Source: an uncultured Chloroflexia bacterium
Lineage (GTDB): Bacteria; Chloroflexota; Dehalococcoidia; DSTF01; JALHUB01
Assembly: GCA_963726245.1 (NCBI GenBank)
Contig: CAVSBT010000002.1
Span: forward strand, 1 to 12,314
Length of the DNA stretch: 12,314 nt
Direction: 5' to 3'
Part shown: positions 2,602 through 12,314 of the stretch, piece by piece
Numbering within the stretch: the stretch's first letter is position 1
How the letters are laid out: each line of letters begins with the position of its first letter
Made by a program: the position numbers and the translations under genes
The notes under the pieces: generated by a model
Seen by the model: only the letters and a program-made list of their open reading frames with translations
Told to the model about the DNA's origin: nothing
The model's database searches: none

Positions 2602-2640
2602 GCCCCTGTAGCTCAGTCGGACAGAGCAGCGGTTTCCTAA
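2602..2640 (+). pseudogene. tRNA-Arg(CCT) 5' half, copy 1 (att-like junction)
   Basis: GCCCCTG TA GCTC AGTCGGACA GAGC A GCGGT TTCCTAA matches the intact tRNA at 5244 through the anticodon loop, then diverges; no T arm or 3' acceptor strand follows. Confidence 0.9.
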
Positions 2641-2814
2641 GTCGCCCCCGCTATACGCTGTAGCCCCAGCTTCTACGTCCCCACCTACACGCCCAAAGTT
2701 ATCTTGGCTATCGAACCCGGCCCACGTCTGCCTCTGGCGGTCGGTGGCCATCCTTTGGCCTGGCCACCGACCCGGCAGCGAGTATGGCTGCCACCACCCG
2801 CGCGTCGAGGGTCT
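2641..2814 (+). repeat. Conserved post-anticodon arm, copy 1
   Basis: Aligns with 4037-4206: by hand count 65/80 identical over the first 80 nt (ungapped) and 56/64 over the last 64 nt. Confidence 0.92.
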
Positions 2815-2853
2815 GCGACGGCTGCGAGAAGGTGGTCCCCTCACAGGATAACC

Positions 2854-2882
2854 TTGACCGGGGGAAGGCGTTTCCGTAGGGT
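2854..2882 (+). promoter_or_regulatory. Probable promoter of the DsbA-like cargo gene
   Basis: TTGACC (2854-2859), 17-bp spacer, TAGGGT (2877-2882). Confidence 0.45.
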
Positions 2883-3028
2883 AGAGGCAGTCTAACGTCG
2901 AGAGGGTAGGCAGAGGGAGCCGGTTCTTGTGTCGATGGGGGCATGAAGTGGCAGAACAACCTGATAAGCGAGGATCATCGCGCAGGCAGGCAGACTCAGC
3001 GAAAGGAAGCTCAAGTCAAGCAGCCAAC

Positions 3029-3795
3029 TTGAGGCTGCGCTTCTCGATAAGCCTGATCGTGGCCATCGCGGTCGTGGCGGCAGCAGCCGGCATGGGCTGT
3101 GGCGGCACGTCGGAGGACGTCGCAGCCCACGCCGGGGCACAGCCTACGCCGGGGCGCAGGCTACGCAGGGGACCGGGGGCACTCCCACGGCCGAGCCAAC
3201 CCCGAAGACCATCAACGATTGACCCGGGCGACAACCCCGCTAAGGGGCCGGCGGACGCAAAGGTCACAATCGTCGAGTTCTCCGACTTCCAGGGTCCAAA
3301 CTGTGGGAGCTTCGCTCAGCAGACCCTGCCGCAAATACTGGCGAACTACGGGGATAAGATCCGCTTTGTATTCATGAACGACCCCCTGAAGGGCAATACC
3401 TATGCCCAAAAGGCTGCGGAGGCGGGGGAGTGCGCAAATGCGCAGGGGTCCTTCTGGCAGTACCACGACTTGCTGTTCCAGAACCAGCAGGTCCTTACCA
3501 ACCTGCTTACCCCCGATCCAACGGCGGGGCCCACCAAGGTAGTCGAGAGCCTGAAGGGCTACGCGGCCCAGCTAGGGCTGGACACCGCTAAGTTCAATGA
3601 CTGCCTGGACTCGGGGAAGATGGCGAGCGCAGTGCAGGCGGACCAGCAAGTCGCGCAGAAGGCCATCCAAGATGCAGGGTTGACCAGCTTCCGCGGCATA
3701 CCGGCTTTCTTCATCAACGGCAACTATCTGGGCGGCGCCAGCCGTACGATGTCTTCAAGCAGCTGATCGACGCGGCGCTGGCGGCCGCCGGGTAG
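3029..3795 (+). CDS. DsbA/BdbD-family thioredoxin-fold lipoprotein with a GxxC active site; frameshifted
   Basis: GPADAKVTIVEFSDFQGPNC, AQKAAEAGECANAQGSFWQYHDLLF, GIPAFFING. Signal peptide MRLRFSISLIVAIAVVAAAAGMG-C from TTG 3029 (alternative GTG 2948). One missing C near 3738 restores the canonical end GAQPYDVFKQLIDAALAAAG-stop at 3795; further compensating indels lie in the Pro/Thr linker 3115-3218. Confidence 0.85.
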
Positions 3796-3950
3796 CAGCG
3801 GCGGAAGACCCCAACCGACGTAGAGACACCCGGCAGGTCGTGCTACTCCAGTACGGCCTTGGTGCCTCTGCCGGCTGACTTCTGCACGAGGCGCAGCCGG
3901 TGGGGGTACTAATATCGCATCCGTATCTGCCCGGCTCCCGGACCCCTGCT

Positions 3951-3997
3951 TCGCCTCATTCGCCGGTACCTGGCTGTGTGCTACACTGACTCGAGGC
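3951..3997 (+). promoter_or_regulatory. Conserved promoter arm upstream of tRNA half copy 2
   Basis: TTCGCC (3959-3964), 17 bp, TG-C-TACACT (3982-3987); 39/47 identical to 5197-5243. Confidence 0.75.
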
Positions 3998-4036
3998 GCC
4001 CCTGTAGCTGAGTCGGACAGAGGAGCGGTTTCCTAA
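3998..4036 (+). pseudogene. tRNA-Arg(CCT) 5' half, copy 2 (D stem decayed)
   Basis: 37/39 identical to copy 1; both differences (GCTC>GCTG, GAGC>GAGG) break D-stem pairs; ends at TTCCTAA. Confidence 0.9.
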
Positions 4037-4206
4037 GTCGGCCCCGCTATGCGCTGTAGCCTCAGGTTCCACGCCCCCAGCTAAACCCCAAAAGCTATCG
4101 TGTCTATCCAACGCGGCCCCCCTTTCCCTACGGCCGGTGGCGTCCTTTGGCCTGGCGACCGGACCGGGCGCCAGTATGGCTGCCACGACCCGCGCGTCAA
4201 GGGTCT
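4037..4206 (+). repeat. Conserved post-anticodon arm, copy 2
   Basis: Homologous to 2641-2814; both copies end at CGCGCGTCRAGGGTCT. Confidence 0.92.
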
Positions 4207-4297
4207 AGATACCTCCGGCACACGCCTCCGGCGCGCCCTTGACCCGCGGGTGTACAATACTTCCGTCCTCGCCACCCGTTGGACAGGGAGGTGCAAC

Positions 4298-5139
4298 ATG
4301 AAGCGGCGGCTAGGCACGGCAATAGTGGTTGGCCTGGCAATGGCGCTGCTGGCAGGCAGCGGCTCGTCAGTCTCGGCGCAGCCCGTGGCCAGCATCGCCC
4401 TCCCGGCACCCGGCACACTCAGCAGCTCTACCCCGGCTGCAACAACATCTCCCTCACGTTCCCCGACGGCACCCCCAGTCAGACCGTGGTGCAGGCGGTG
4501 ACGCCTGCCGGGACAGTGGAGACGCTCTGGCGCTTCAACGGGCCTCTGAACAAGTTCGAGGGTTTCTCTCCGGCCTTTCCCCAGGCCAGTGACCTGATGA
4601 GCGTCAACTTCCTGGACGCCGTGTGGTTCTGCATGAGCGCAGCGCCGGGGGCCACCTCGCCGCCGCTGCCCTCTCCCACACCGGCGTGGAGTTGCGTGTC
4701 GGCCCCTACGACATACCACAATGAGCAGTTTGGATTCGAGTTCCAGTACTGCAGCGGTGCACGCTCACGGACCAGTCCGAAGGAGCTCATGGCCCTGGTG
4801 GTGGCGAGGTCTACCTGTGGATCATCGTGGGCAGTCGTTTGGAGGTGTACGTGAGTGATTCGGGTGGACTGAGCCTCACGGACTACGTCAGCCAAGTGAC
4901 GGCACAGTTGGAAGCAGGAGGCGCTTCGATTGACTCCGTAACACCAGGTTGCTCCCGTCGGCGGTGCGGACGCGGTGACCGTACAGTACAGGTTTGGAGG
5001 CCTCGGCCGGTACGGCGAAGCGACCTACTTCCAGCGCAATGGCCTGGTCTACGATGTTGAATTCACTGCGGGAGCCTTCACTTGCAACGAGCCCCAAGTT
5101 TACACGGGGATACTGTCCACGTTCCGGTTTACGGAGTGA
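4298..5139 (+). CDS. Secreted two-domain protein (N-terminal LYPGCNNISL domain, Pro/Thr linker, PsbP/DcrB-like C-terminal domain); three frameshifts
   Basis: RBS GGAGGT, ATG 4298, signal peptide MKRRLGTAIVVGLAMALLAGSGSSVSA. Pieces join across frames near 4390, 4755 and 4955: ...TYHNEQFGFEFQY...RLEVYVSDSGGLSLTDYV...VGGADAVTVQYRF...NGLVYDVEF...ILSTFRFTE-stop at 5139. Confidence 0.72.
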
Positions 5140-5196
5140 TTGGCCTGGGCGCTCTCGCATCAAAGGTCCTCTTGGCAACACTATTCATGCGGCAGA

Positions 5197-5243
5197 TCGC
5201 CCGATTCGCTGCCACCTGGCCGTGTGCTACACTGACTCACGGC
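5197..5243 (+). promoter_or_regulatory. Conserved promoter arm upstream of the intact tRNA-Arg
   Basis: TTCGCT (5205-5210), 17 bp, TG-C-TACACT (5228-5233), 10 nt before the tRNA start. Confidence 0.8.
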
Positions 5244-5318
5244 GCCCCTGTAGCTCTAGGATAGAGCAGCGGTTTCCTAAACCGTTTGTCGCGGGTTCGA
5301 GTCCCGCCAGGGGCCCCA
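5244..5318 (+). tRNA. tRNA-Arg(CCT)
   Basis: Acceptor GCCCCTG/CAGGGGC, D arm GCTC-TAGGATA-GAGC, anticodon stem GCGGT-TTCCTAA-ACCGT, T arm GCGGG-TTCGAGT-CCCGC, then C-CCA; 75 nt. Confidence 0.95.
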
Positions 5319-5634
5319 TCTTTGGAGATCACAGGCCTGTTCCATTCGCCGAGGCCCTAGCCTGCCGACCCCCTTGTGCGGCCCTCGGGGCTCGCATACA
5401 ATGCCCACGAGACAGGAGGCTCGGCCTGCCCATTGTTAGGCGGGGCAAGGCGGGCCACATGCAGGGACGCTAGGGGTCGTGCGCCTCGAAACCACCAGCG
5501 GGGGACACGGCCCCACTTCATCTCCTGTTTGGCGCGGTCCATCCTTTCCGGCGGGCTTTCTGGGTGCAACTCGGGCCGTTCCGTAGGACAGGGAGCAAGC
5601 GTCTGGTCATCCCGCCTGGACACCCGGCTGTAAC

Positions 5635-5663
5635 TTGCTTGCTGACGTTATGTCACGTATAAT
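5635..5663 (+). promoter_or_regulatory. Sigma70-type promoter with a palindrome in the spacer
   Basis: TTGCTT (5635-5640), 17 bp, TATAAT (5658-5663); the spacer contains TGAC-GTTAT-GTCA (5643-5655). Confidence 0.75.
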
Positions 5664-5669
5664 GAGCCC

Positions 5670-5792
5670 GAGCCTTCGGAGTGGCTGAGGCAGGGATGCG
5701 GAAAGGCTCTCTTGAGGGTTCACCAGGCCGCCGGGCCCTCTCCCCGCCACCACAGGGCCTGGCGGCCCTTGTGGTGCCTCCAGCGAACCCTC
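5670..5792 (+). ncRNA. Candidate structured sRNA or 5' leader of unknown family
   Basis: Begins at the predicted TSS. Stems GAGCCTT/AAGGCTC (5670-5709) and GAGGGTTC/GAACCCTC (5714-5792); the latter encloses a 14-bp stem (5726-5739/5754-5767). Confidence 0.4.
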
Positions 5793-5901
5793 CGGCCAGC
5801 CTGCCGCCCCTAGTGACCGCCGCTAGCACAGACCTCTGGTCGGCCCATGACAGCGGGCATACAATCTGGACAGGGCTGTCCGTCTCCACGGGGGTTCGAG
5901 C

Positions 5902-7005
5902 ATGACTAAGGAAGAGGGCTGGGTTTCGAGCAGATACTCTCCGGAGGATGCCCAGGATTCCTTGCAGCTTCTACGCAAGACCTCGGGCGACATCGAGGCC
6001 GCCTCCCCGGCCTATCAAGAATGGCAGTACCAGCGAAACCCTGCGGGCCCGGCTATCGCCACCCTGGCGCGAGAAGCGGAAACGGGCCGGCTCATCGGCC
6101 AGGTGGTAACAACCCCTGTCAGAGTAAGGCTTTCGGGCAAGGTGCGCGTCGCCAGCCTTTCGCTGGACCCGGTGATTGATCCTGCCTACCAGGGCCGCGG
6201 CGTCCTCGCCGGACTGTTGAAGGATGTCTGCGCTCTGTCGGCAGAGGAGGGCATCGCCTTCACCTACGGCTTCCCCAACCAGGCTTCCTATTCGACATTC
6301 GTGAACAAGGCTGGGTTCAGGAACATAGGGTCGGTTCCTCTCCTCGTCAGGCCCTTGAACCCGGAGCGCCTCGCCATGAAGACAACGCACAGTCGCGTTC
6401 TAGCGAAGACGGCCTCCGTCGCCAGGCGCGTGTGGCGCACCCCTCCGCCGATGCCGCCGCAGAAGGCCGTGCCCGGCCTGGAGATAGGGGAGGTCGATTC
6501 CTTCGATAGCTCCTTCGTCCTCTTCTGGGACAGGGTCCAGCACCGATTCCCCGTCATGGTGGTCAGGGACCCCTCCTACCTCAACTGGCGCTTCGCGGGC
6601 GTGCCTACTAGAGAGTACACGACCTTCGTCGCCAGGTCGGAGGATGAGATACGAGGCTTCATCGTCCTTCGCGCCGCGCCGCTGGGTCAGTTCTCCGCGG
6701 GCCTCATCGTGGAGCTGGTAGTGGAGGCCAGCGCCGAGGGGCGCGCGGCGGGCCGCCTCTTGATTGACAAGGCGTACTCCTACTTTGAAGACCAGGACCT
6801 AGACATCCTTGCCAGCCTGGCTCTGCGACATACGGATGAGTTCCGACTCCTCCGGTCGAGGGGCTTCTGGGTAGCTCCCAAGTTTCTGGAGCCCCGGCCC
6901 TTCCGTCTTGTTGTGCGCTGCCACGACGAAGAGCGCAGCCCCAGCCGTCTGGCCTACGACCTCAGGAACTGGTTCGTGACGATGGGGGACTACGAGGCGG
7001 GGTAG
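5902..7005 (+). CDS. GNAT family N-acetyltransferase (tandem GNAT folds)
   Basis: 367-aa ORF with WQYQRNPAG, acetyl-CoA motif IDPAYQGRGV, YGFPN, VVRDPSYLNWRF and C-terminal WFVTMGD. Confidence 0.9.
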   Translation: MTKEEGWVSSRYSPEDAQDSLQLLRKTSGDIEAASPAYQEWQYQRNPAGPAIATLAREAETGRLIGQVVTTPVRVRLSGKVRVASLSLDPVIDPAYQGRGVLAGLLKDVCALSAEEGIAFTYGFPNQASYSTFVNKAGFRNIGSVPLLVRPLNPERLAMKTTHSRVLAKTASVARRVWRTPPPMPPQKAVPGLEIGEVDSFDSSFVLFWDRVQHRFPVMVVRDPSYLNWRFAGVPTREYTTFVARSEDEIRGFIVLRAAPLGQFSAGLIVELVVEASAEGRAAGRLLIDKAYSYFEDQDLDILASLALRHTDEFRLLRSRGFWVAPKFLEPRPFRLVVRCHDEERSPSRLAYDLRNWFVTMGDYEAG

Positions 7006-9043
7006 GCAGGGCTGCTGAGACTCGAGGCTTCGGCGGGCACTGTTACTAGCACACGGGTCCCTGCGCCCGGTTCTGAGTGTACAGCTAGGGTTCCCCCAAG
7101 CAGCCGAACTCGCTCTTGCATTCCTATTATGCCGAGCTTGCCGGACGCAGCCAGGTCGCTTGTGCTCCTCGGTAGCTCAAAACCGTCGCCGTTGTCCGCG
7201 ACTATCATGGTGATCCCGCCGCCTCTGAAGTCCACCGTGACTTCAACTGCGGACGCACCCGAGTGCTTTCTAACGTTGTTCAGCGCCTCCTGAGCAATGC
7301 GGAACAGGGCCAGCTCCGCCTCATCCGGGAGGCGATGCTGCTCACCCAACACCCTGATGTTTGCCGCTACGCTGTGCTGTTCTTCCAGAGCTGTCGCAAG
7401 CCATTTCAGCGCTGGCAGCAAGCCCAGATCATCAAGGACAGGCGGACGTAGGTCCCGGCTGAAGCGGCGTACACCTTCCAGTATCCTGTCGCTCTGCTCA
7501 CGGAGCTCCTCAAGACGCTCCGGGATCTCCTTCGGCAACTGGTTTCCGCTGGAGGCCAGCGTGTCAACGAGCATATCAAGACGACGAGAGAGTCCAGTGA
7601 GGGCCTGCGCGGTGTCATCATGAAGCTCGCGGGCGATGCGCAGCCGCTCACCCTCCTGAGCCTTGAGAACCTGTGAGATGTAGAAACGCAGGTTCTCTTG
7701 CATTCGCCGCTGCTCGGTCACATCTCTCACGATCGCCTGGACGCCTACGGGCTGCTCGCCTCGAATGATCAAGCTGGGCATGAGCTCCACGATGGCCTCG
7801 CGTCCCGTCTCGCTTGGTCAACCCGAGCTCGAAGGGACCCTCGACGGCCTCGCCGTTGAGTTGCCTCCTGACAATCTCCTTCACAGTCTCTCGGCCTTGC
7901 CCCGAGAGGAACCTGCCGATATCCATCCTGGCCATTTCCGCACGACCATAGCCAGTAAGCTTCTCACAGGCGCTGTTGGCCGCGATGATCTTGCCGTCCA
8001 GGTCGTGAACAAAGATTGCTTCCGTAGCGTTCTCAAAAAGGCCTCGATAGTTCTCTTCCGATTGCCGAAGCTGCTCAGCGGTTTCTCGCTCCTTCTGGTA
8101 AAGGCGGGCATTCTCAATGGCGACGCCAATCGCGTTGCCGATGGCGTTCAGCACCTCTATCTCGTCGGCACTGAACTCCCTCAGGCTGCGTGTGGCCGCG
8201 CACAGAGTGCCCATCACCCTGCCTTTCGACTTCAGGGGCACGATGAGCTGCGTCTGGATCTCGCCTAGTCCTCCCACGCCGCTGTACAGTGCCAGCTCGC
8301 CAGAGACGTCTCTGATTGCCAATGGTTCTCCCGTTTGGGCGACGCGCCCATTGAAACCCTCGCCCACCTTGATCGGTTTGATGGCAGCCGCGGACTCGTC
8401 CGCTATGCCGTGATAGGCTTCGAGAGTTAGCTCGCCAGCCTCCTCCTGAAGGAGGAACAGCAAACATATCTCTACGCCCATCACATCGCTGACCTTGTTC
8501 ATGGCAAGGCCCAGGATGTCCCGCAGCTCCAGAGACTCGGTAACAACGCCCAAGACGGCATTGATGGCAGAGAGCCGCCTCTCCTCATTCTCGATAGCCT
8601 GGATGTGTGATTGGAGCTCCCCCTGAGCCCATTCCAGCGATGCAATGGTCTGCTTGTGTCGCGCCTTCTCCTTGTTCTGCACGTCTATCAGCCAGCTTAC
8701 AAAGGCGCCGATGAAGAGGAAGGCGGCAACCTCAATTGCGGCCTCTTCGGCCTCCGAGGATACCAGGAAGACGCGGGGCAACAGGAGCGCAGCAATCACG
8801 GAGGAGGCCAGGAGGCCTCCCGGCAGCCCGAAGACAAAGGCGGCATAGGCTACGGGCAGAATGGAGAGTATCCGGTGCACGGAGTGTCGGGCGAAGTCGA
8901 GTCGAAGGCTTTGTTTCCACCGAGTCTATCAAAGGGATGTGGTCTGCATAATAGAAGACTGTCCCGCAGGTCATGATGGCCAGTATGACCCAGAAGTGCG
9001 GCTCTTTCAGAACTTCAAACGGCTGTCTTCGTGAAGAAGCCAA
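6990..9043 (-). CDS. Membrane sensor histidine kinase (TM-GAF-PAS-HisKA_3-HATPase, NarX/LiaS-like); frameshifts near 8910 and 7800
   Basis: Joins ORFs 8732..9043, 7648..8880 and 6990..7790: TM helices, GAF (GEGFNGRVAQTGEP...AIENARLY), PAS (LFENATEAIFVHD...VRDVTE), H-box ERLRIARELHDDTAQ, EALNNVRKHS, DNGDGF, GIIGMQERV. Confidence 0.9.
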
Positions 9044-9091
9044 TCTTTCGATGCCCCTTCCTCCCCCAATACCCCAGGCTGAGTCAATGCC

Positions 9092-9757
9092 CTAGGGTAT
9101 GTTCTCCAAAGAAAGCCAGCCTTCCTTCAGCGCACGTAGCACGGCCTCAGTGCGTGAGCTAACCCCGAGCTTGTCAAAGATGCGGCCCAGATGAGATTGG
9201 ACGGTACGCACGCTGAGGGCAAGTTGTGCGGCGATCTCCTTGTTGCTCAGGCCTTTGGCCGCTAGCTTGAGCACTTCAAGTTCTCGCTCGCTAAGGTAGT
9301 CACCCGCGCTTTCAACGCGGTGTCCGTGACTCAGGGACGAAAACCACTGCACGACCTTGCGGGCCACGTGCGGGTCAAGCACTACCTCGCCAGCGCACAC
9401 ATCCCGGATGGCATCAACCAGTTGCTGGCCACGCACGTTCTTCAGCAGGTAACCATCGGCGCCCGCTTCCAGGACGGCGTAGATGTACTGATCGTCGTCA
9501 TAGGCGCTGAGTACCAGTACTGCCGTACCCGGCTGCATCTTCTTGATCTGTTTGGCCGCTTCAATGCCGTTGAGGTTCGGCATAGCGATGTCGACTATCG
9601 CCACATTGGGCTTCAACTGGTTAACCAGCCTAACGGCTTCCTCGCCGTCAGCGGCCTCCCCGACGACCTCGAAGTCCTCCTCACGCTCCAGGCGTTCGCG
9701 GGTCCCTTCTCGAACAAGCGTGTGGTCGTCAGCAATAAGGATGCCGATCTTGTCCAT
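9092..9757 (-). CDS. NarL/LuxR-family response regulator
   Basis: REC domain (ADDH, phospho-acceptor D in DIAMP, YLLK) plus LuxR HTH (LSERELEVLKL..GLSNKEIA..L.LSVRTV..H...KLGV.SRTEA); lies directly upstream of the kinase. Confidence 0.97.
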   Translation of the reverse strand: MDKIGILIADDHTLVREGTRERLEREEDFEVVGEAADGEEAVRLVNQLKPNVAIVDIAMPNLNGIEAAKQIKKMQPGTAVLVLSAYDDDQYIYAVLEAGADGYLLKNVRGQQLVDAIRDVCAGEVVLDPHVARKVVQWFSSLSHGHRVESAGDYLSERELEVLKLAAKGLSNKEIAAQLALSVRTVQSHLGRIFDKLGVSSRTEAVLRALKEGWLSLENIP

Positions 9758-9835
9758 GTCATCCTCTTCCTGCGCCGTCTGCGACAGCCGCCTCTACCCC
9801 TCACGGCACCCGATCCGTGGGCCCTTCACCTGTTG

Positions 9836-9844
9836 ATCTTATCA
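9836..9844 (-). promoter_or_regulatory. Extended -10 box for the response regulator/kinase operon
   Basis: Minus strand TG-A-TAAGAT about 80 nt upstream of ATG 9757. Confidence 0.5.
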
Positions 9845-9932
9845 CAAGACGGCGCCTACGCCTGCCGCCCTTCCCCTCAGAGCCGGCCAGTCCCACCCCT
9901 CATGACCAGCCCTAGCCAGCGTCGCAGAGGCG

Positions 9933-9958
9933 AGAACTAGAGAGAAATGCCTAGTTCT
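9933..9958. promoter_or_regulatory. Candidate operator (8-bp perfect inverted repeat)
   Basis: AGAACTAG-N10-CTAGTTCT in the divergent intergenic region. Confidence 0.4.
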
Positions 9959-10190
9959 TCTGACGCAGCGTTGCGACATGTGCGCGAAAAGGGGGCCATA
10001 TGGCTGCATCAACCCTCCGCCCGTTTGTCGAACCTCCGCTCGTTTTCGAGGCGTCAAATGCCTAACAAGGACGGCTTCGGCGGCGGACGACAGCACCGGC
10101 GCGGCACAGTAGGCTTGAGACGCAGGAGCAGAAAGCTCAGCGGATTGTCAAAGCTCCGGCTGGAACCGACAGGGAATGGGGGCGATAGAG

Positions 10191-10793
10191 ATGACAATGA
10201 CAGGCTTCGAAACAAGGCTTCGGACCACAGTGGAGAAGGGAGGGAATGGTAGCTCCGCCTATCTCTATCCGCCGCGAAGGATGAGGGCGGTAGGCTACGT
10301 GAGGCAGGGCTTCGATGAGATGGGCAAGAAGGGGACCAGCCCCGAAGGCCAGAAGGCAAGGGTGGCTGGGTGTGCCGACTCCCACGAATGGCATCTCATC
10401 CACACCTATGAAGACATTGGCTGGTCGGGAGAGGACCTGGACAGGCCGGGCCTGCTGGCGCTGCTCTCCGACCTGGACTTCGAGATCCTGATAGTGGACA
10501 GGACGGACCGCCTGACCTGCAAGAAGAAGGACCTGGACTTCCTCCTGGCTCTCCTTGAGAAGCACGGCGTCACTTGCGTGCCTGCCACCTGGTCGTGGGA
10601 GCCCCTGGCCCAGTACATGAGGTGGTGGTACCGCCTGCGGGCCAGTCCCGTGTACGCAGTGCTCGACTCTCCCCTGCGGAGGGTGAGCCGAGCCCAGCCA
10701 GAGGACGTCCGGTGGCGAGCATGGTGGGAAGCCCGACCTGAGAGGGATCCTACTCAAGGGGGGACAGTCAAGGGACTGCAGGGTGGATTGTAG
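10191..10793 (+). CDS. Serine recombinase (resolvase) N-terminal-domain protein lacking the catalytic Ser
   Basis: RAVGYVRQG...SPEGQ...YEDIGWSG..LDRPGL..LL...ILIVDRTDRL; no HTH or recombinase C-terminal domain. Start uncertain (10176, 10191 or 10281). Confidence 0.85.
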   Translation: MTMTGFETRLRTTVEKGGNGSSAYLYPPRRMRAVGYVRQGFDEMGKKGTSPEGQKARVAGCADSHEWHLIHTYEDIGWSGEDLDRPGLLALLSDLDFEILIVDRTDRLTCKKKDLDFLLALLEKHGVTCVPATWSWEPLAQYMRWWYRLRASPVYAVLDSPLRRVSRAQPEDVRWRAWWEARPERDPTQGGTVKGLQGGL

Positions 10794-10811
10794 GGTGCAA
10801 AGGAGAAGCCA

Positions 10812-12314
10812 ATGGCCTCGAGGGAGATTTTTTGGAACATCCAGCTCGGGGGGATTGTCTATCTCCTGGGGTTCATACTAGCAGCCGTCGTCTGCTACGG
10901 GTTGTACCGTCGCCTTCGGCTCTGGCGGCTCGGCAGCGAGGACGACAGGCTGAGCAACCTGGGGAGTAGAATACGGGCCTTCGTCGTCACCATGGCCGAC
11001 GGCTTATGGCACCGACGTATCGTACGCGATCGCTATGCGGGGCTGATGCACCTCCTGATCTTCGGTGGATTCGGCCTCCTCATGATGGGACCGTTCCTGG
11101 ACTTTGTGAGCGAGCACGTCGTCCACTTCATGAAAGGCAACGTCTATCTAGGGGTCCACCTGGTCCTGAACGTGGGCGGGCTGCTCGTCCTGGCCGGCGT
11201 TGGCATGGCCGCCTACCGCAGGTACGTCATCAGGCCCGCGAAACTGGACAACGTGCTGGACGATGCCGTCACCCTGACGTTGCTTGCCGTGATCATCGTC
11301 ACCGGCTTCGCGGTGCAGGGCCTGCGAATCGCCGCCACGCAACTGGACACCCATCCTGATTGGGCAGCATGGACGCCTGTGAGCTTCGTCCTTGCCGAGG
11401 CGTTCAGCCGCCTGGGAGACAACGTGATCCTGCCGCTGCACAGAGGGCTGTGGTGGGGCCACATGTTGATATCGCTTGGGACCATTGCCTACGTCTTCGT
11501 CGGTTCCTCAAGACTGGACCACATCTTTGCCTCGCCGCTGAACATGTTCTTCAAGTCTCTGGACGGAAAGGGCGTCCTCAAGCCCATCGAGATCACGGAG
11601 ACCGTTGAGACCTTTGGGGCGTCCAGGATCCAGGACCTGACCTGGAAAGACCTGCTCGACCTCGACGCCTGCACCCGGTGCGGGAGATGCCAGGAGGTTT
11701 GCCCCTCCTTTCTCACCGGGAAGCCGCTCTCGCCCAAGAAGCTAATCCAGGAGCTCAAGGCTCACCTGGTCGAGCAGGGGCCCGCGCTGCTCCGAGGCAA
11801 AGGTGACGGAGAGGCAAGTCCAGACGTTGCCTGTCCAGCCCTGGTTGATGGCGTGGTGACCGAAGACGAGCTGTGGGCATGCACCACCTGTGCGGCCTGC
11901 GAGGAAGCATGTCCCGTTTTCGTGGAGCCCATCAGCAAGATCATTGCCATGCGTCGCAACCTGGTGCTGGAACAAGGCAAGATCCCCGGCACCGCCATGT
12001 CCAGCTTGAGATCAGTCCAGGACAGGGGACACCCCTGGAAGGGAGCGCTGGCCTCAAGGATGGATTGGACTTCCGGCCTGCACATGAAGCCGCTCTCCAG
12101 CAATGGCGCTGCTGGTCTCCTCTTCTGGGTGGGCTGCACAGCAGCCGTCCAGGAGCGGGGCATGAACATACCCGTCTCCCTGGTGAAGATCCTGAGCACG
12201 GCAGGTGTGGACGTCGGCTTGCTGGGCCACGAGGAATCGTGTTGCGGCCACTTCGCACGCCGTCTCGGTGACGAGTACCTGTTCCAATGCCAGGCCAAGC
12301 AGAACATCGAGACT
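10812..12314 (+). CDS. Membrane-bound heterodisulfide-reductase-related Fe-S oxidoreductase (FadF/HdrD-like: NarI-type TM domain, 2x 4Fe-4S, CCG); 3' end outside the window
   Basis: RBS AGGAG, ATG 10812, 501 open codons (MASREIFWNI...). TM region with conserved His residues, CTRCGRCQEVCP, CTTCAACEEACP, FWVGC and EESCCG. Missing from the ORF track because it has no stop in the window. Confidence 0.93.
   Translation, partial: MASREIFWNIQLGGIVYLLGFILAAVVCYGLYRRLRLWRLGSEDDRLSNLGSRIRAFVVTMADGLWHRRIVRDRYAGLMHLLIFGGFGLLMMGPFLDFVSEHVVHFMKGNVYLGVHLVLNVGGLLVLAGVGMAAYRRYVIRPAKLDNVLDDAVTLTLLAVIIVTGFAVQGLRIAATQLDTHPDWAAWTPVSFVLAEAFSRLGDNVILPLHRGLWWGHMLISLGTIAYVFVGSSRLDHIFASPLNMFFKSLDGKGVLKPIEITETVETFGASRIQDLTWKDLLDLDACTRCGRCQEVCPSFLTGKPLSPKKLIQELKAHLVEQGPALLRGKGDGEASPDVACPALVDGVVTEDELWACTTCAACEEACPVFVEPISKIIAMRRNLVLEQGKIPGTAMSSLRSVQDRGHPWKGALASRMDWTSGLHMKPLSSNGAAGLLFWVGCTAAVQERGMNIPVSLVKILSTAGVDVGLLGHEESCCGHFARRLGDEYLFQCQAKQNIET

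Follow-up and report, generated by a model that had tools for sequence, protein, structure and literature searches.

The DNA studied here, called the window throughout, is the whole 12,314-nt contig CAVSBT010000002.1 (C2 below; 12.3 kb, 62.6% G+C) of an uncultured Chloroflexia bacterium of the Dehalococcoidia (GCA_963726245.1), a metagenome-assembled genome (MAG) of 46 contigs that are mostly of 66-68% G+C. Between a tRNA-Ala(CGC) gene and a tRNA-Arg(CCT) gene, it carries two consecutive units built on a single plan: a 5' half of tRNA-Arg, a right arm of ~170 nt, a cargo region unrelated to that of the other unit, and a left arm of ~45 nt with a putative promoter; the intact tRNA-Arg stands last. 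This two-unit repeat architecture is real and lies far beyond chance. We consider it probable that the units belong to a family of small site-specific integrative cassettes that have no recombinase gene of their own and are served in trans at tRNA-Arg(CCT), and we class them as a miniature, integrase-less variant of the tRNA-targeting integrative elements, akin to the cis-mobilizable elements (CIMEs).

Two units in the anticodon loop of tRNA-Arg(CCT)

ARAGORN and Rfam recognize two tRNA genes in the window, tRNA-Ala(CGC) and tRNA-Arg(CCT). The array that they frame is made of the following parts:

2443-2518, + strand: tRNA-Ala(CGC), the left neighbour of the insertion site (69.3 bits).
2602-2640, + strand: displaced tRNA-Arg(CCT) 5' half, copy 1, the resident original half, fused to right arm 1 (attL-like).
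2641-2814, + strand: right arm of unit 1, non-coding conserved DNA directly after ...TTTCCTAA, its first ~80 nt forming the core.
3951-3997, + strand: left arm of unit 1, with an extended -10 (TGCTACACT, 3979-3987) that ends 10 nt before half copy 2.
3998-4036, + strand: displaced tRNA-Arg(CCT) 5' half, copy 2, which under the integration model was carried in by unit 1.
4037-4206, + strand: right arm of unit 2, 80.5% identical to arm 1.
5197-5243, + strand: left arm of unit 2, with TGCTACACT at 5225-5233, ending 10 nt before tRNA-Arg.
5244-5318, + strand: intact tRNA-Arg(CCT) (62.8 bits), the sole tRNA-Arg(CCT) assembled in the MAG; 5244-5280 would be the 5' half supplied by the cassette, a variant with a D-loop 2 nt shorter, and 5281-5318 the resident 3' half.

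The tRNA-Arg sequence up to and including the anticodon loop, i.e. the first 39 nt (...GCGGT TTCCTAA, with TTTCCTAA as its end), recurs at 2602-2640 and 3998-4036. The two copies are identical to each other at 37 of 39 positions, and to the intact gene at 89.7% (2602-2640) and 84.6% (3998-4036). Both lie upstream of tRNA-Arg and on its strand, as the Islander criterion for displaced 5' fragments describes. Measured from start to start, unit 1 is of 1396 bp and unit 2 of 1246 bp. An earlier sequence-only reading of the window had proposed this arrangement of halves, arms and cargo, and the tRNA predictions, the half repeats and the arm alignments all agree with it. Its size for unit 1 was exact; the 1244 bp that it gave for unit 2 is the spacing of a shorter repeat.

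The right arms are 80.5% identical over 174 nt (E 3e-39), or 83.1% over 213 nt when the halves are included (E 1e-56), and the left arms (3951-3992 versus 5197-5238) are 85.7% identical over 42 nt. The cargo regions of units 1 and 2 have no detectable similarity to each other, so that the initial description, conserved arms around unrelated genes, was correct. It had also dismissed a plain tandem duplication, rightly: the window arms are 80% alike, and each is 85-86% identical to some arm elsewhere (for arm 2, that of metagenome contig L058 comes closest, at 85%). Being closer to outside arms than to each other, they argue against a recent local duplication.

In all the right-arm junctions that we listed, GTCG begins directly after TTTCCTAA, which places the insertion in the anticodon loop, as had been proposed, and corresponds to the anticodon-loop crossover defined in Islander. 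Across 27 distinct copies of the right arm, most columns of the initial ~80 nt reach a conservation of 90% or more; the distal arm is far less conserved. Between families f1 and f3 the right arm remains 86-87% identical; the adjoining hairpin DNA is unalignable between the same two families. The arm has a patchy distribution, with 6 of 93 genomes of the order and 3 of 40 genera (tallies over order genomes include the unpublished genome G045, on which no claim rests).

What is conserved in the right arm is its sequence. It has no Rfam match, it does not fold better than shuffled versions of itself (z of 0.01), and the consensus fold comprises only 4 pairs, with no covariation. Such conservation without structure would fit a protein-binding recombination arm. 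Group I introns are known in the anticodon loop of tRNA-Arg(CCU), and an intron, or another known RNA, was considered for the arms and rejected: there is no Rfam intron match in the window at E values up to 1, and no 3' half behind the arms. The coding hypothesis met the same fate, the recurring minus-strand peptide (TLDARVVAAIL...) merely translating conserved DNA, with no Pfam match.

A few oddities of the right arms should be mentioned. Their starts (2645-2670 and 4041-4066) read GCCCC...CTGTAGCCTCAG and resemble the 5' end of the tRNA (GCCCCTGTAGCTCAG) but for an insert of 8 nt and one additional base; this tRNA-like stretch could derive from an older half nested in the arm, or represent a binding site that is repeated. 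A minus-strand promoter-like site at 4173-4200 (TTGACG-16-CATACT, 9/12) faces the tRNA half and is present at the same place in other right arms, with TCGACG as the -35 in unit 1. Two right arms are rearranged: the one at 1830-2854 of L026 (contig C4 of genome G012) is split by an 850-nt insert that carries a hemerythrin-like gene on the opposite strand, and the one at 896-982 of L059 has lost positions 47-139.

The role of the left arm is best seen against two features of the host locus:

2403-2432, + strand: sigma-70-type promoter of tRNA-Ala, TTGACA-18-TATAAT (12/12 hexamer matches), outside the cassettes.
2525-2592, + strand: long GC-rich hairpin between tRNA-Ala and the tRNA-Arg site, host DNA found in empty as well as occupied sites.

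In relatives with an empty site, a promoter of the 2403-2432 type probably serves the tRNA-Ala/tRNA-Arg pair, the two genes being presumably co-transcribed. An insertion in the loop would cut the tRNA-Arg 3' half off from this operon promoter, and we read the left-arm motif, TGCTA[C/G/A]ACT, as an extended -10 promoter that replaces it; for the regenerated tRNA-Arg, this promoter would presumably be the TGCTACACT of left arm 2. The motif ends 8-10 nt upstream of 14 of the 43 listed half or tRNA sites, which are those with a left arm detected by BLAST (the motif script overlooked one known site, at 1929 of L076). At nine sites that are empty or in first position, the host hairpin takes its place. 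This hairpin, 84-94% conserved in relatives and metagenome contigs and present at nine first-position sites, has a stem of at least ~20 bp (GGCTGGAGGTTGGACG...CGTCCAGCCTCCAGCC), is weakly mis-scored by Rfam as a microRNA precursor, and may serve as a signal for processing or termination in the tRNA operon.

Empty sites and varied cassettes among relatives

As support for its proposal, the sequence-only reading had asked for relatives with empty sites and for variation in cassette number and cargo at this tRNA-Arg; both exist, the first even within the genus. Genome G001, of the same genus, has a clean empty site: an intact tRNA-Arg comes right after tRNA-Ala and the hairpin, and its 5' part is 100% identical to the half at 2602-2640. 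The G001 contig aligns with 2387-2640 of the window at 91% and with 5238-12276 at 90%, its single tRNA 5' part being aligned twice; relative to G001, the window thus has a clean 2.64-kb insertion with half repeats at both ends. In three other genomes (G004, G005 and G037), tRNA-Arg directly follows tRNA-Ala. In genus g2, tRNA-Arg is without an upstream half in G009, G011 and G014, and is preceded by two units in G012.

The occupied sites differ in what they hold. Metagenome contig L057, whose flanks are ~92% identical to those of the window on both sides, has one unit, with an alpha/beta-hydrolase/adenylate-cyclase gene, versus two in the window. The same arms bound a single unit of ~2.1 kb in G019, from another family (a 464-residue open reading frame (ORF) without known function), and two units of 2393 and 1460 bp in G012 (peptidase A4, membrane protein and DUF362 genes), of which a variant contig has a 2825-bp unit. 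Contig C44, from the second organism in the MAG (see below), carries a half, an arm, an RDD/SHOCT gene and then paralogues of cargo 2 up to the contig end. These paralogues (8740-10000 of L001, from C44) are in tandem, with a repeated C-terminal coding end and intergenic region, and the first copy apparently has a 1-nt slip near its start.

When metagenome contigs were scanned for the arm with a degenerate pattern of 31 nt, 22 arm-carrying stretches from 21 contigs came up, which, together with the six genomes of the order, agrees with the earlier expectation that the arms occur elsewhere. Many of these contigs show the succession tRNA-Ala, hairpin, half, arm, cargo, left arm and then either a further unit or tRNA-Arg. 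The 12 units with two recognizable halves, in arrays of one or of two and more, are of 1246, 1396, 1402, 1460, 1730, 1815, 2170, 2393, 2825, 3182, 3292 and 4836 bp. In addition to an alpha/beta-hydrolase fused to an adenylate-cyclase domain, the cargo seen in the various units includes Eco57I-like methylases, a NotI-like nuclease, a SnoaL-like protein, a hexapeptide acetyltransferase-like ORF, a peptidase, a secreted DUF11 protein and several unknowns. Several units have more than one gene, and the idea that single-gene units are the rule had to be given up, many of them holding two or more. The first ORF behind the arm was co-oriented with it in 21 of 26 non-duplicate cases, a count based on mechanical ORF calls of which at least one on the minus strand, in L069, is spurious.

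Could the array be an artefact, i.e. a chimera of strains assembled from a mixed population? The MAG does mix two related organisms. Contig C44 has the same left flank as C2 (HD-domain, DUF3090, tRNA-Ala and hairpin) at 80-82% identity (C2 versus C44:87251-90032), the tRNA sets are duplicated (two tRNA-SeC, two Gln/Glu/Met clusters), contamination is of 6.28%, and one group of contigs has 62-64% G+C, the others 66-69%, tRNA-Arg(CCT) being assembled for the minor organism only. Frameshifts in the window genes, described next, suggest a poor consensus as well. However, the repeat copies differ by 5-20%, so that neither a collapse nor a mis-join would be expected, and short public contigs cover pieces of both units. 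Other MAGs and independent metagenome contigs from several samples show the same order of parts, which speaks against the misassembly that the sequence-only reading had considered; an artefact is highly improbable.

The cargo genes of the window are the following:

2943-3795, + strand: cargo 1, a membrane-anchored DsbA/Thioredoxin_4-like gene (Pfam PF13462, 1.9e-19).
4298-5139, + strand: cargo 2, which encodes a protein with a signal peptide, similar to a DUF11-type secreted family over the N-terminal ~175 residues and different in the C-terminal part.

Cargo 1 has GPNC in place of CPxC (an intact paralogue on contig C37 has CPYC), and a 1-nt frameshift at 3739 alters its last ~19 residues; five contigs from three public runs have an extra A behind 3739. 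Cargo 2 has three frameshifts, at ~4414, 4756 and ~4947, with a frame change at 4414 in tblastn; contigs from other public samples have an extra base at 4411/4415 and at 4756, and one is without the base at 4947. The 10 further ORFs or ORF pieces within the two units match no Pfam family, and neither unit encodes a recombinase according to the Pfam scan of all these ORFs, which upholds what had been noted from the sequence.

The flanks of the window code for an HD-domain protein, a DUF3090 protein, a GNAT protein, a histidine kinase, a response regulator, a resolvase-domain protein without the catalytic serine, and an Fe-S protein. The sensor histidine-kinase gene (GAF, PAS, HisKA_3, HATPase; 6990-9043, - strand) is spread over three frames, i.e. 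it has two frameshifts, and its orthologue in L066 is one ORF of 692 residues. It is either a pseudogene or the product of consensus errors in a low-G+C contig. Since this flanking gene is also broken, decay and consensus errors in a low-coverage minor genome are indistinguishable; the view that both cargo genes are decayed pseudogenes is weakened accordingly, with only one frameshift, in cargo 1, remaining firm.

Probable recombination at the loop and the search for an enzyme

We propose that cassettes enter tRNA-Arg(CCT) by site-specific recombination in the 7-nt anticodon loop, TTCCTAA. In the donor form, the cassette ends would be joined and present, in order, the left arm with its promoter, a tRNA 5' half (39 nt identical to the target) and the right arm. 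One product of the reaction would be the resident 5' half fused to the right arm and the cargo, the other the cassette promoter and 5' half fused to the resident 3' half; by this second joint the tRNA would stay intact and expressed, and the target would be regenerated. Repeated insertion, combined with recombination between arms that are 80-90% identical, would yield arrays that differ in number and content among close relatives. The first cargo gene, which usually points away from the right arm, would probably be transcribed from the displaced upstream promoter, through the truncated half. The enzyme would be supplied in trans, and the anticodon-loop position together with the long conserved arm suggest a tyrosine integrase.

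Three sets of observations bear on the recombination step. First, breakpoints fall at the loop. The contigs L063 and L069 run together for 1025 nt, at 95% identity, and diverge exactly behind ...CCTAA, where L069 goes on with the tRNA 3' half and L063 with an arm and a hydrolase cassette. One arm is also seen in two left contexts: a contig from public run X4 is identical to the window over 2599-2741 and is preceded there by left-arm letters, not by the hairpin. Second, TCCTAA precedes the arm in no fewer than six contexts outside the tRNA, and in most of these the sequence, GGYT-TCCTAA, resembles that of the anticodon stem-loop. These contexts are upstream of recA (G023), beside a DUF262-like gene (G011), and in L055/L058/L070, L059, L061 and L068. 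Third, at least one other family of arms follows this tRNA half, with its junction four bases farther on, after TTTCCTAAACCG (L031 and L038). The constant junction, the breakpoints at the loop and the non-tRNA contexts point to a site-specific enzyme, as homology alone would not yield them.

The alternative that relies on homology alone supposes that the junction was made once, long ago, and that the arms, with the tRNA-Ala and tRNA-Arg flanks, have since acted as portable homology, by which cassettes come and go or are exchanged through homologous recombination and unequal crossing-over after DNA uptake, with no dedicated recombinase. The arms are long (~210 nt with the half) and 80-90% alike. 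In the comparisons of the window with L057 and with L066, the outer arm parts continue the flanks and only the interior differs. Signs of recombination between cassettes are also seen, with the truncated hydrolase start behind the arm of L069, the split arm of G012 contig C4 and the arm deletion of L059. Such a scheme, however, does not predict the joining of the arm, at the same nucleotide, to at least six unrelated non-tRNA contexts of mostly GGYTTCCTAA-like sequence. The other arm family behind the same half also speaks against it, and a cassette-borne promoter with a tRNA half is typical of site-specific integrative elements. We hold it to be quite unlikely as the sole explanation.

Searches for the enzyme proceeded from the arms and from recombinase genes. 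The sequence-only reading had also named, as possible support, an autonomous version with an integrase between the same arms; none was found in the MAG itself, in the 93 genomes of the order or in the metagenome contigs, and the arm search of GTDB species genomes returned only three records, all known beforehand and none of them autonomous (these searches detect arm sequences that are near-identical or at least 65-70% similar). The tyrosine recombinases of 10 genomes were examined as candidates and rejected, none being linked to an array. The nearest PF00589 matches are 13 kb away in G012, and in G011 5 kb from a solo arm, the latter within a tRNA-Gly island. Large serine recombinases, such as that of MAG contig C11, were rejected as well, with none near an arm.

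One further candidate lies in the window:

10176-10793, + strand: resolvase-domain protein of 205 residues (PF00239, 3.3e-11), with YVRQG at the position of the catalytic serine and no DNA-binding domain.

This gene is present in 15 of 17 f1 genomes and in both f3 genomes (2/2); it stands 4.9 kb to the right of tRNA-Arg in the window, G001 and L066, and far from tRNA-Arg in G009, G011 and G012. As a host gene conserved with or without arms, and without the catalytic serine, it was dropped as the cassette recombinase; its product looks like a domesticated, inactive recombinase domain.

In genome G026 (6404-6445 of L038, ~9379 of L077 and 5040 of L079), the anticodon-loop core separates the tRNA-Arg 5' half from the 3' half, beside phage-like genes and fragments of tyrosine recombinase genes. 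The tRNA-Arg(CCT)-like halves are ~1 Mb apart on opposite strands, each abutting phage-like genes (P27-type small terminase, SSB), and a third TCAGG-TTCCTAA junction is found near the recombinase gene fragments. This suggests the integration of a prophage without repair of the tRNA, followed by an inversion. As a lead to the cassette enzyme it was abandoned, close homologues of the fragment (65%) occurring only in G011 and far from the tRNA-Arg of that genome.

A number of results weigh against cassettes moved by an enzyme in trans. No PF00589 match was obtained on the array contigs of 10 genomes, C2 included; the units examined, in the window and its relatives, contain no recombinase; and the arm, at the similarity that such searches require, had no match in 2.9 million viral contigs (searched with three patterns), in a phage collection or in a plasmid collection. 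A circular or excised form was not seen in the public runs, which consist of short contigs only (0.19 of sampled words in the best run) and are as such unable to show circles, read depth or absence, or to support conclusions on habitat or strain. The left arm escaped the generic promoter scan, with only 3 of 6 matches in its -35. The frameshifts of the window cargo genes may mean that both copies are inert. Other points come from the arrays themselves. From left arm 1 through the half and arm 2 to where cargo 2 begins, the window matches the tRNA-proximal unit of L064/L066 at 87.9% identity, with flanks at 88.7%, so that unit 2, at a flank-like identity, looks vertically inherited. The units on the tRNA-Ala side have unrelated cargo, which means that it is not the tRNA-adjacent unit that varies. 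The strict stacking proposed at first, with the newest cassette always adjacent to the tRNA, is contradicted by this common tRNA-proximal unit, and insertion at older half-arm junctions, or arm-arm recombination, must also occur. Finally, in the window-L057 pair the outermost arm parts continue the flanks at a similar identity, and homologous recombination would look alike.

Some of these points would be expected of fixed relics, i.e. remnants of integrase-bearing islands or prophages that once occupied this loop, lost their integrase and most genes, resemble each other in their arms by descent and no longer move. The frameshifted cargo, the unit 2 shared with L064/L066 at flank-like identity and the fruitless search for an integrase, a circle or an autonomous element all suit this view, and G026 shows that integrase-bearing elements use the same core in the order. 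On the other hand, the units examined do not keep even a fragment of a recombinase gene, and random decay should have left some. The conservation of ~80 nt of the right arm at 90% or more in 27 distinct copies, and not of the distal arm and cargo, points to selection acting on the arm. Between relatives that are 92-95% identical, entire cassettes are present or absent, with the breaks placed at the loop, and the two frameshifts in the flanking kinase gene indicate that those of the cargo may be assembly errors rather than decay. We regard the relic explanation as unlikely.

Site-specific cassettes without a recombinase gene, served in trans, are the reading that we prefer. A more ambitious form of it can be offered as a tentative possibility: a tRNA-anchored platform for gene capture, in which a recombinase encoded elsewhere, by the host or a phage, would recognize the 80-nt arm and the anticodon stem-loop and would insert and excise minimal cassettes at tRNA-Arg(CCT) and look-alike sites. 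Each cassette would rebuild the tRNA with its own promoter, and the cargo, often restriction-modification enzymes or secreted proteins, would be expressed from the promoter displaced by the next cassette, the whole amounting to an integron-like system on a tRNA gene.

Kinship with known systems, and significance

Much of this has precedents. Genomic islands with a crossover in the anticodon loop of a tRNA gene, tandem arrays of them, and integrase-less tandem units (the CIMEs) are all already described in the portions of the literature on which we draw. The Islander survey, in the portions used here, reports 2083 anticodon-centred sites, 125 tandems of two or more islands and a 5' fragment in 159 of 3919 islands, and its filter requires one integrase per island (PMC4383910). 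Like such tRNA and tmRNA islands, as those portions present them, the cassettes combine an intact tRNA with displaced fragments of the same orientation at the unit ends, a crossover in the anticodon loop, restoration of the gene and tandem arrays. Unlike them, units of the window type have no integrase inside or beside them, are of only 1.25-4.8 kb, and share an 80-170-nt sequence-conserved arm in spite of unrelated cargo. They also use what is, in those counts, the rare 5'-fragment configuration, in which the element must bring a promoter. Because an integrase is required for each island, arrays like these would be invisible to finders of that kind.

The closest relatives by class are the ssrA islands of Dehalococcoides, of which 15 are without an integration module and were proposed to be CIMEs formed by accretion (PMC3146451, as far as the sections relied upon go). 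The likeness with those islands lies in the tandem units, the att-type repeats of a small RNA gene, the lack of integration and transfer genes and the same bacterial class. As CIMEs should be, the window units are att-bounded and free of integration and transfer genes; a related autonomous element with the same att sites, which belongs to the CIME definition too, did not turn up in the searches made. In the sections cited, the Dehalococcoides arrays hold autonomous islands with DsiB/DsiA serine recombinases, whereas none was found here, and they occupy the 3' end of ssrA, whereas the cassettes target a tRNA anticodon loop, replace the 5' half and are far smaller. In the tycheposons of Prochlorococcus, repeated integration at one tRNA pushes older elements inward and leaves partial tRNAs scattered, with adaptive or defence cargo (bioRxiv 10.1101/2020.12.28.424599, from the part consulted). 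Repeated integration at one tRNA gene and partial tRNAs left in the array are common to both systems. Tycheposons have their own tyrosine recombinase and replication genes, neither of which is in the cassettes, and the part of their description cited mentions no counterpart of the conserved arm.

A different comparison can be made with systems that depend on an enzyme in trans by design. Integron cassettes and Xer-dependent pdif modules are small recombinase-less units, mostly co-oriented, each with a copy of the recombination site. The cassettes resemble them in being small, recombinase-less, mostly co-oriented and stacked at one site. The integron analogy of the sequence-only reading accordingly holds for the layout and fails for the adjacent integrase and for a structured attC-like site: there is no intI-type gene, attI or Pc beside the array, nor any PF00589 match on C2, and in contrast to the structured attC palindromes the arm is conserved in sequence, the anchor being a functional tRNA gene that each cassette rebuilds. 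A narrow full-text search of the literature, which covered articles without their supplements, returned no account of cassettes of kilobase size that lack an integrase and have in common a sequence-conserved arm at the anticodon loop of a tRNA.

If the cassettes are indeed served in trans, they would constitute an overlooked route of gene turnover in uncultured Dehalococcoidia, and the cargo moved in this way would include restriction-modification enzymes, secreted proteins and signalling enzymes. They also illustrate how the promoter problem is solved by an element that takes the place of a tRNA gene's 5' part. Finally, the arm, short and conserved in sequence, is a concrete DNA bait with which the recombinase could be sought, and such an enzyme could serve as a tool for site-specific integration.

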